From sequence record OR498728.1: a stretch of DNA of 64,000 nt. One strand, written 5' to 3'. Positions 44,918-46,730 of the stretch are shown in pieces. Position numbers and translations under genes: made by a program. The notes under the pieces were generated by a model. It did no database searches. It was given only the letters and a program-made list of their open reading frames with translations, and was not told where the DNA came from. The DNA is from Escherichia phage ZX4221. Position 1 is the first letter of the stretch. Each line of letters starts with the position of its first letter.

Positions 44918-45291
44918 GCCATCCTTCCATACCAAACCTCACCTGACCTCGCCTAACCCTACCTTACCCCACCATACAGCACCTTATTAAAACACCCTGT
45001 TTAAAGACCTTTTAAAAAGGTAAGTCTCATTTTAATGTAGCTGAGACTAACTACCCATACCTCACCCTACCAGACCCTACCAGACCAGACCTTACCCTAC
45101 CAGACCCTACCGAACATCACTTAAAAACCCTCTTAGAAGACTCTTAAGTGATGTAATCGAATTTTAATGTAGCTCCGATTAACTACCCATACCTCACCTC
45201 ACCCAACCATACCATGCCTTGCCAGACCGCACCTTACCTCATTAAAAGACCCTCTTAAAAGACCTTTTAAAAAGGAGCCTCCGAAGAGGCT
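44918..45291. repeat. Composite intergenic repeat block I: three units of a pentamer-periodic CC tract (NNACC)n plus a conserved hairpin module
   Basis: Tracts such as ATACC TCACC CTACC AGACC CTACC AGACC AGACC TTACC...; conserved modules TTAAAAGACCCTCTTAAAGACCTTTTAAAAAG, GTCTCATTTTAATGTAGCTGAGAC and ATCACTTAA...TTAAGTGAT recur here and at 46428..46730. Confidence 0.7.
45265..45291 (-). terminator. Rho-independent terminator downstream of CDS 45303..45743
   Basis: Minus strand AGCCTC-TTCG-GAGGCT hairpin followed by CCTTTTTAAAAGG. Confidence 0.6.
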
Positions 45292-45302
45292 ACCTAGTCA
45301 AC

Positions 45303-45743
45303 TTAGAAAGGTTTTCTACGTTGCTTGTTAATGTTAGCTTTCATAGCAGCTAAATGGTTTTGCTGTTCAATCAGTCGTGAACGTTCTTGATGACTAAGCG
45401 CCATAGTGTTCACATTCTCAATTGCTTGAGTGGCTTGCTTTAAAGCTCGACCAATCTTACCAGACATTTTGCGTTTTGCAATAGTTGCTTGATGCTTAGG
45501 TTCAACCACACGATAACCAACACCCATTGAAGCAACCAGGTAAATCTTCTCTTCTTTAAGAAGCTTTTCAATAAACTTCTCAAGTCGGTTTAGACGTGTA
45601 AGTGCATAAGCCTTCATTTCATCTTCGTACTTAACAATGTCACCTTGATAAGTTGGCTTCACAATACCTAAGAAGGTGTCCATCTCGGAATGTGATACAG
45701 TGTCGCCGTAACTAAACTTTGCTGCTAATGCTTTTGTATTCAT
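45303..45743 (-). CDS. hypothetical protein (146 aa), cassette gene 2
   Basis: ORF-track ORF; flanked by the composite repeat blocks. Confidence 0.5.
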   Translation of the reverse strand: MNTKALAAKFSYGDTVSHSEMDTFLGIVKPTYQGDIVKYEDEMKAYALTRLNRLEKFIEKLLKEEKIYLVASMGVGYRVVEPKHQATIAKRKMSGKIGRALKQATQAIENVNTMALSHQERSRLIEQQNHLAAMKANINKQRRKPF

Positions 45744-45745
45744 AA

Positions 45746-46348
45746 TTAAACGTTACCTTCTGAAATAACTTCTACAGAAAAACGACCAAAGCGTGGACGC
45801 CAATCACCTACACCACAAAGGTTACCAGCATTTTCCAGAACCATCAGAAGTTCCTCTTTGGTGATTTGCTCTTCATCAAACATCAAACCAAACTCTACAG
45901 ACCAGTCACGGAAGATTGGACGGTAGCTCATAACTCGTGCTGTACCAATCTTAACAGACTTAGCATAGATAAAGTCTGGATTCTTAGCAAGTTCTTGTGG
46001 GTTTGCTGGACAGTTCTTGATAGTCATTGGGAAGACTACATCTGTCAGCATAATGGCTCGGTCAATTACCTTACCAAGTTTGTTGAGTTTTGCACCAGAC
46101 TTGATACAAGCCTCAATCATCTCACCGTTCATAACAAAACCAAGTTGCTCATCGTAGTAACAAGAAGTTACCAGTTGGCTTTCTGCTAAGAGCGCATAGT
46201 CTTCGTCAGTCTTTTTACGTTTACTGGACAGAGACTTGTGATATTTTGTCAGAGGGTTTAATGGGTCTGACAACGTATCGTTATGGCTCAAGAAAGGACG
46301 AGTACCAGTGATTTTGATATTTAGCAGTTTCATAGCATTTAGCTCCAC
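45746..46348 (-). CDS. hypothetical protein (200 aa), cassette gene 1
   Basis: ORF-track ORF; 2 nt from downstream gene. Confidence 0.5.
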
Positions 46349-46427
46349 ACTTTAGTTGATTGTTAAGTTGTTTGTAAAGAACCCTCAACAGAAGACTCTT
46401 TAGAAACTTGGTAGATTTTTAACGTGG

Positions 46428-46730
46428 CTACTACCATCCACCCACACCGTGCCACACCACACCACACCATACCCAACTCCACCTAATCCTACCACACCTT
46501 ATTAAAAGACCCTCTTAAAGACCTTTTAAAAAGATAAGTCTCATTTTAATGTAGCTGAGACTAACTACCCATACCGAACCTCACCGCACCATACTACACC
46601 TGACACCACCTTACACCACCGCACCATACCTGACCGAGCTACACATCACTTAAAAACCCTTTTCAAAGACTCTTAAGTGATGCTGGTGAGTACCCGTTGG
46701 TTTATGCTGCTCAGTATACTCACCAAATTT
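46428..46730. repeat. Composite intergenic repeat block II: two units of the same CC-tract plus hairpin module
   Basis: CTACCATCCACCCACACCGTGCCACACCACACCACACC... tract and the same hairpin modules as block I; ends with inverted repeat GGTGAGTA/TACTCACC. Confidence 0.7.

Follow-up and report, generated by a model that had tools for sequence, protein, structure and literature searches.

A very probable complete type II VIPR locus in Escherichia phage ZX4221, and orphan guide loci in its relatives

Introduction

What is the role of five blocks of DNA in which the same dinucleotide recurs every five nucleotides, set on either side of just two genes? The question is raised by Escherichia phage ZX4221 (sequence record OR498728.1), of which a stretch of 64,000 nucleotides, here called the window, was analysed after a first-pass annotation had drawn attention to positions 44,918 to 46,730. 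The window belongs to the genus Felixounavirus, its best megablast match being Escherichia phage vB_EcoM_ESCO45 (99%), and the locus in question has the DNA ligase gene on one side and an ORF87-like gene on the other. The answer developed below is that this region of a Felix O1-like phage very probably holds a type II VIPR (Viral Interference Programmable Repeat) locus, and a complete one. The locus is real but already known, in that it is a near-identical relative of a published model system and adds no new principle to it.

VIPR systems entered the literature in April 2026 with two bioRxiv preprints (10.64898/2026.04.26.720920 and 10.64898/2026.04.26.720927). As reported there, the RAMP-fold protein Vipr polymerises on guide RNAs (vrRNAs) of 9-16 YNNGG repeats, one protomer per pentamer, burying each GGY and leaving the NN dinucleotides to read double-stranded DNA (dsDNA) with every third base skipped. 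According to the same preprints, the vrRNAs of phage SUSP1 are about 100 nt long and co-purify with Vipr (small-RNA sequencing and pull-down), the SUSP1 ribonucleoprotein binds dsDNA and silences transcription, and the guides of the SUSP1 clade are aimed at an E. coli satellite. VIPR is a newly reported way for RNA to read DNA, a gapped two-in-three code written in pentamer repeats, and has been proposed as an ancestor of CRISPR effector complexes. The window provides a natural five-guide example, for which exact coordinates of the guides, tails and leader hairpins are supplied here; the remaining interest lies mainly in the orphan guide loci of related phages.

The pentamer tracts

A scan of the whole window for CC at period 5 in at least seven of ten successive pentamers found exactly five tracts, at 44912-44998, 45040-45131, 45172-45258, 46427-46508 and 46564-46640. 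All five carry CC on the plus strand, which is to say GG on the minus strand, the coding strand of every neighbouring gene, and the same period-5 scan found no GG, AA, AC or GT counterpart in the 64 kb. The threshold was reached at 38 window positions and at none in 100 dinucleotide-preserving shuffles (shuffle maximum 5/10), and therefore the periodicity is real and well outside what chance produces. The first-pass annotation is confirmed in its account of the repeat anatomy and strand, as in its statement that the tracts bracket exactly two genes, these being the minus-strand open reading frames (ORFs) at 45303-45743 and 45746-46348. Its proposal that the 5-nt spacing places the CC dinucleotides on alternating faces of the helix does not account for the feature.

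Each tract comprises 10-14 pentamers (50-70 nt). The window together with 28 related loci supplied 66 distinct tract segments with 918 pentamers, whose logo reads G 0.81, G 0.92 and T 0.85 followed by two near-random positions, with C virtually absent from positions 1-2; the commonest segment length in this sample is 13 pentamers. Close relatives with near-identical flanks nonetheless have quite different NN content, and therefore the pattern itself is conserved while the NN dinucleotide within each pentamer is its hypervariable payload.

The enclosed proteins and their association with the tracts

In a search of solved structures, the 195-aa product of the first island gene on the sense strand matched PDB 36pp_D, "SUSP1 Vipr protein", over its full length, with 191 of 195 residues identical (98%, E 6e-128). 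The residues H17, K33, R39, E71, M72, K82, G87, K88, R138, C173, D177, W178 and R179, given as RNA or DNA contacts in one of the preprints (10.64898/2026.04.26.720927), are all present. The start of this gene, vipr, is most likely the ATG at 46333, which gives the 195 aa of the solved SUSP1 protein, and not the GTG at 46348. The second gene, vap1, encodes a protein identical at 145 of 146 residues (99%) to the product of the SUSP1 gene that adjoins vipr, and occupies the same position directly downstream. Neither Vipr nor the vap1 product has a match in Pfam. An earlier suggestion that GGTNN RNA might bind a phage protein proved apt, for Vipr, the product of one of the bracketed genes, is reported to bind it (10.64898/2026.04.26.720920).

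The identity of Vipr across 117 Ounavirinae records is never below 90%, and among those listed a single record falls short of 97.9%. The association of protein and tract is also met in unrelated phages. An exact, DNA-only scan of IMG/VR with the pattern (GGTNN)6GGT retrieved at least 120 loci; among the matches listed were true microsatellites together with many unrelated viral contigs bearing heterogeneous GGTNN tracts in intergenic arrays on the gene strand. A tblastn search with the 200-aa island protein as query located homologs on at least about 30 unrelated contigs among these loci, mostly directly beside the array. That homologs stand beside arrays retrieved by DNA pattern alone argues that a Vipr-family protein and its tract form a conserved two-part module.

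Ten of the IMG/VR contigs (L039, L049, L127, L126, L046, L059, L066, L055, L038 and L120) carry arrays of 5-17 heterogeneous GGTNN tracts adjoining Vipr homologs. The spacers in such arrays are short and conserved, for example AAGGCTAATG, AAGGAATGGTTTAATGAATTTAATT, GGCAGTT and TTCCGCA, and the host phages are unrelated, with GC contents from 32 to 58%. These long arrays presumably represent other VIPR types, staggered or differently tailed. After the distant Vipr homolog of Listonella phage phiHSIC (32% identity) come three period-5 arrays in which the conserved unit is GCA-NN / RGCAA instead of GGY-NN (L161 3085-3430, downstream of ORF22), each of them preceded by GGGGTAAAACTCAA. The annotated ORF21 of phiHSIC, which overlaps the arrays on the opposite strand, is probably spurious. 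The GCANN-type unit fits a remark in the preprints on "a related consensus".

Guide targets in an E. coli satellite

If the tracts are guides, what do they read? The satellite was located by blastn with the SUSP1 baseplate gene named in the preprint and is present in 474 of 5426 complete E. coli genomes; seven of the 474 variants were used for guide matching. It is a chromosomal island of about 10-12 kb (L152-L158) in which small genes and one or two serine recombinase genes accompany a tape-measure and a baseplate gene. The latter two are related to those of Ounavirinae, a Dam-like methyltransferase gene and an HNH gene are often present as well, and the insertion sites are several (yciI/tonB, a DUF72 gene, dinB and wrbA).

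Four of the five guides, numbered vr1 to vr5 along the sense strand, match this element when one nucleotide is skipped after each dinucleotide. Guide vr1 matches the satellite tape-measure coding sequence (CDS) over 12 consecutive perfect units, with the skipped base at the wobble position (NNx, phase 0). A satellite intergenic region is matched by vr3 at 18 of 20 bases, and a small satellite CDS by vr5 at 19 of 22 bases, here too in codon phase (phase 0), while vr2 matches the tail of a satellite-encoded vrRNA gene at 19 of 22 bases. The protospacers of vr1, vr3 and vr5 lie at L155 10695-10729, L157 8437-8409 and L152 10629-10660, respectively. Unit-shuffled guides reached the score observed for vr1, vr2, vr3 or vr5 at most once in 300 trials, and registers with a skip of 0, 2 or 3 gave background only. 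The same behaviour is seen in the relatives, where 49 of 64 distinct guides have a significant satellite match at skip 1, and where the longest perfect runs of consecutive units measure 5-13 at skip 1 as against at most 6 at skips 0, 2 and 3. The 1-nt-skip code and the satellite as its natural target are independently confirmed by computation.

Within the 64-kb window there is no self-target at 80% or above, the best skip-1 scores running from 15/20 to 18/26 and vr2 reaching 17/22 (77%) on its own tail. The vrRNA array has no blastn match in the 5426 E. coli genomes, and the exact full-length 1-nt-skip patterns of vr5 and vr1 have none in IMG/VR. For vr4 the pattern gave one match each in genome_contigs and IMG/VR, both in unrelated organisms and neither extending; both were judged to be due to chance.

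The satellite of E. coli GN4751 itself carries a vrRNA gene (L156 ~4000-4130, minus strand) and is without vipr. The gene has a TTGACG...TATAAT promoter, an array of 11 GGY-NN units, an intrinsic terminator and a tail that belongs to the GGGTGGAT/CCAC class (GGGTGGAT...CCACGTTAAAAAT), and it is on the end of this gene that the 19/22 match of vr2 falls.

Orphan guide loci in related phages

All 230 of the related phage records contain vrRNA-like units, and Vipr is encoded in 117 of them. About 113 of these 230 Felix O1-like records keep the promoter of the array (P1) and one or two vrRNA units at the site of the locus, without vipr or vap1. Felix O1 itself (L003 3632-3915) retains P1, leader hairpin A, one degenerate tract and a tail. 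Two tracts are kept in the complete genome of phage humlepung (L005/L159 42899-43096), in the whole of which no vipr or vap1 was found (best tblastn E 0.37). Further orphan loci listed are L004, L009, L015, L018, L024 and L029.

The orphans fall into two sorts. For two-unit arrays the alignment takes in both repeat blocks of the window, as unequal recombination between homologous units would predict, and 9 of their 12 guides match the satellite, one of them (in L024) at 12 of 12 units. None of the four single-unit orphans matches it, and their GGY fidelity is 0.65, versus 0.81 in the arrays that are accompanied by vipr. The simplest reading of these loci is recurrent recent loss of the genes followed by decay of what was left. 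A more speculative idea, which we regard as rather unlikely, is that orphan guides are kept as free riders on the Vipr of a co-infecting phage, or as decoys that titrate the Vipr of a competitor; if that were true, phages and satellites would be sharing VIPR guides as a resource or contesting them. The retention of guides without the protein in many relatives is relevant to the question of how systems of this kind come to be lost, shared or cheated.

Proposed mechanism and alternative explanations

Taken as a VIPR locus, the region would work as follows. Transcription from P1, with read-through, would produce five vrRNAs of about 90-105 nt, two from upstream and three from downstream of the genes, each with a long leader hairpin on its 5' side, 10-14 pentamers of GGY + NN and a conserved hairpin-pseudoknot tail capping the 3' end. 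Vipr, encoded between the two blocks, would polymerise on this RNA, one protomer per pentamer, with GGY buried and NN presented. The resulting filament would read dsDNA in a gapped register (two bases paired, one skipped) and block transcription there, and vap1 would enhance the silencing effect. At least three guides (vr1, vr3 and vr5) would be aimed at the integrated E. coli satellite of about 10-12 kb, whose tape-measure and baseplate genes are related to the phage's own. Since these three guides point at the satellite, the system is most likely an anti-satellite weapon that silences a parasitic element in E. coli. We infer both that the locus is expressed in this phage and that the phage benefits from silencing the satellite.

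Several points weigh against this account. What is published on the mechanism comes from a single group, in two preprints. About half of the related phages are without vipr, and therefore the system is dispensable. No window guide has a full-length perfect match in the seven of 474 satellite variants. The satellite match of vr2 falls on sequence that also resembles the tail of vr2 itself (17/22) and may be partly an artefact of that similarity, and vr4, which is internally duplicated, has no detectable target in the seven satellite variants, IMG/VR or species-representative genomes.

Could the locus then be VIPR by descent but inactive or decaying in this phage, its tracts no more than relics? 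The loss of vipr and vap1 from about half of the relatives is in keeping with such a history, as are the duplicated, targetless vr4 and the presence in the window of vrRNA units that depart from GGY (TGT, AGT and GAT, for example). Yet the reading frames of Vipr and vap1 are intact, and their products are 98-99% identical to the experimentally active SUSP1 proteins. GGY fidelity is higher in vipr-bearing arrays than in single-unit orphans, three guides keep highly non-random satellite matches, and promoter and tails are intact, all of which makes decay very improbable.

The first-pass annotation had likened the arrangement to the repeat-flanked hypervariable cassettes of other large virulent phages, in which the repeat blocks would be recombination boundaries for the swapping of cargo. 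The island is indeed present in some close relatives and absent from others, and the repeated units supply homology for its deletion, as "empty" sites with one or two units show by aligning to both blocks. When cassette content was compared across the 230 related records, however, no alternative cargo was found between the blocks and the distance between them was constant. The two genes, a conserved effector and its accessory, are nearly invariant, and their presence or absence alone varies. Moreover, the adjacency of the Vipr family to GGTNN arrays in unrelated phages points to functional coupling rather than to a boundary role, and the variability of NN is explained by the matches between guides and satellite. 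A cargo-swapping cassette is an explanation to which we attach almost no weight.

Scarcely credible at all is a role for the tracts in transcription or RNA metabolism without guiding (C-rich antisense Rho utilisation, a G-rich R-loop or replication-origin element, nut-like antitermination or the binding of a TRAP-like ring protein). In its favour are an antisense strand rich in C and poor in G over 50-70 nt, the position of the tracts inside the replication-gene cluster and downstream of a strong promoter, the boxA-like GGTCTTTAA motifs of the leader hairpins and a period of 5 that recalls the spacing of TRAP sites. Any such role, however, fails to predict either a hypervariable NN that matches the satellite in the 2+1 register alone or the joint occurrence of tracts and Vipr homologs in different phages. 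A search of Rfam at E up to 10 yields chance matches only, Pfam reveals no TRAP-like protein nearby, and editing of NN is reported to retarget SUSP1 guides.

The candidates entertained and dropped once the Vipr co-occurrence and the PDB match had been seen were a TRAP-like ring site, a G-rich R-loop or replication origin (by analogy with the pentamers of immunoglobulin switch regions), an antisense Rho rut site, a Chi-like or RecA-preferred GT-rich recombination hot spot, a two-tier G-quadruplex, boxA/boxB/boxC-like antitermination, RNase III sites and a single-stranded DNA hairpin promoter. The genome papers of Felix O1 and wV8 do not describe the tracts, the latter annotating merely a "DR_4" repeat; a literature search on GGTNN/GGUNN found nothing relevant, and no Felixounavirus transcriptome was found.

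Anatomy of the locus

On the sense (minus) strand, to which all feature coordinates in this section refer, the locus reads as P1; hairpin A, tract and tail; hairpin B, tract and tail; hairpin C; vipr; vap1; a terminator; three units of hairpin, tract and tail; and a final hairpin with a U-tract. The promoter P1, at the head of the upstream vrRNA block (46713..46740), is of sigma-70 type (TTGACA-16-TATACT), agrees with the consensus at 11 of 12 positions and is kept in all relatives, including those that are vipr-less. A GGTGAGTA...TACTCACC hairpin at window positions 46685-46724, likewise kept in all relatives with or without vipr, overlaps the P1 -10 element and the transcript start and lies upstream of hairpin A.

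Leader hairpin A, directly 5' of vr1 at 46644..46682, has about 18 bp with 4 G-U pairs (RNA fold; inverted repeat I1). It is followed by vr1 (46537..46640), made up of 14 GGY-NN units (46640-46571) and a 34-nt tail (46570-46537). Between vr1 and vr2 stands leader hairpin B (46497..46538), with about 16 bp including G-U pairs in the RNA fold, and vr2 (46410..46498) has 11 units (46498-46444) and a tail at 46443-46410. Hairpin C, also seen in the RNA fold, lies just upstream of vipr at 46373..46404, together with a weak promoter-like site (TTTACA-18-TAAAGT, 9/12, at 46378-46349).

The vipr gene (45746..46333, 195 aa, phrog_4652) encodes the RAMP-family guide-binding protein, and the accessory gene vap1 (45303..45743, 146 aa, phrog_5926) follows it. 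After vap1 comes an intrinsic terminator at 45269..45291, AGCCTC-TTCG-GAGGCT plus a U-tract that is common to the next leader hairpin, a copy of B at 45237..45275. This leads into vr3 (45155..45238), with 10 units (45238-45189) and a tail at 45188-45155. A copy of leader hairpin A (45115..45153) precedes vr4 (45023..45116), which has 12 units (45116-45057) and a tail at 45056-45023; the units of vr4 (45057-45116) include a recent internal 15/30-nt duplication (TRF, 92% match). Another leader hairpin B (44982..45024) precedes vr5 (44895..44983), with 11 units (44983-44929) and a tail at 44928-44895. The long hairpin and U-tract that come next, at 44841..44890, are likely the terminator of the array and overlap promoter P2 of the following gene (TTGACA-17-TATTTT).

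This dissection alters one earlier description. The conserved module of about 70 nt that was said to follow each tract is conserved in its parts and is not a single module: it divides into a 34-nt 3' tail, which belongs to the preceding tract, and a separate leader hairpin of 39-43 nt, which runs into the next one. The terminator-like stems reported among its hairpins likewise reduce to one true intrinsic terminator (45291-45269); the others are tail pseudoknots or leader stems, and termination does not explain the feature.

The tail folds into a hairpin and a pseudoknot. In a gap-free alignment of 14 distinct tails, which come from phages and one satellite, the 4-bp pseudoknot (GUAG/CUAC, GUGG/CCAC or AAGG/CCUU) is 100% paired, with compensatory changes in 3 of its 4 pairs and in 6 of the 7 pairs of the hairpin. 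Slid controls are 28-39% paired, and the covariation score of 0.607 compares with 0.245 in shuffles and at most 0.18 when slid. The loop motif GCTACATTAAAAT was considered as a dispersed promoter and rejected, since it is confined to tails.

Three to four G-U pairs occur in each of hairpins A and B; the leader stems and the tail pseudoknot depend on such pairs and therefore fold on the sense strand only. The complementarity of vr1 to its target begins exactly at the first unit past hairpin A, which is consistent with a role of the hairpin in setting the vrRNA 5' end, and the signals by which these ends are defined or processed may be leader hairpins A, B and C. The main text of the two preprints (10.64898/2026.04.26.720920, 10.64898/2026.04.26.720927) makes no mention of these hairpins.

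Other repeats in the window

Two repeat-rich regions lie well away from the locus. Window positions 1-1070 hold a dense cluster of 10-14 bp tandem and interspersed repeats, such as TTGTTAGAAGGC and TCTGTTAAGAC, along with a 62-bp duplication and a TA-rich run, and this may be a regulatory or terminal region. At 6862-7388, a coding region contains a 252-bp tandem duplication (2.1 copies, 76% match) that probably corresponds to the repeats which the tail-fibre genes 76 and 77 of Felix O1 are described as sharing.

Comparison with known systems

The closest known system is the type II VIPR of SUSP1 (PDB 36pp), which occupies the same genome site, flanked by the DNA ligase gene and the ORF87-like gene. 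In addition to Vipr (98% identical) and vap1 (99%), the two loci have in common GGY-NN vrRNAs, the pseudoknot tail classes, the leader hairpins and the E. coli satellite target family. They differ in the number of vrRNAs upstream of vipr, two in the window versus one in SUSP1, with three downstream in both; the parser used here recovers the published 1 + 3 arrangement in SUSP1 and gives 2 + 3 in the window. The NN sequences of the guides also differ, and the phages belong to different genera, ZX4221 being a Felixounavirus and SUSP1 a Suspvirus.

Satellite-encoded vrRNA genes, which are mentioned in one of the preprints (10.64898/2026.04.26.720920), are guide-only genes with the same tail class and their own promoter and terminator, as in E. 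coli GN4751. Such a gene sits in an island of the bacterial chromosome without vipr, whereas the vipr-less Felixounaviruses are its phage-borne counterpart. The main text of the VIPR preprints does not mention vipr-less Felixounaviruses with guides.

The TRAP site, (G/U)AG x 11, offers a likeness of another kind, in that an oligomer there reads a trinucleotide set apart by 2-nt spacers at period 5. TRAP, however, is a closed ring that regulates its own leader RNA and the spacers of its site are uninformative, while in VIPR it is the spacers that carry the information, and what the complex reads is DNA. The triplet in the window is GGY and not (G/U)AG, and Pfam finds no TRAP domain in the neighbouring proteins.

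A further comparison is with Class 1 CRISPR-Cas. The repeats of the window are degenerate pentamers, and its conserved modules are tails and leader hairpins rather than the near-identical repeats and unique contiguous spacers of a CRISPR array; the flanking proteins include no cas1/cas2 or other Cas domains. Where the systems resemble one another is in the effector. Like the Cas7 filaments that form on crRNA, the RAMP-fold Vipr is reported in the preprints to polymerise along its guide, with a thumb that periodically interrupts guide-target pairing, and in both a conserved handle caps a variable guide. The VIPR guide, in contrast, is non-contiguous (two nucleotides paired and three buried in the RNA, two paired and one skipped in the DNA), as against five paired and one flipped in Class 1 systems, and VIPR is carried by a virulent phage and reported to silence its target, not to cleave it.

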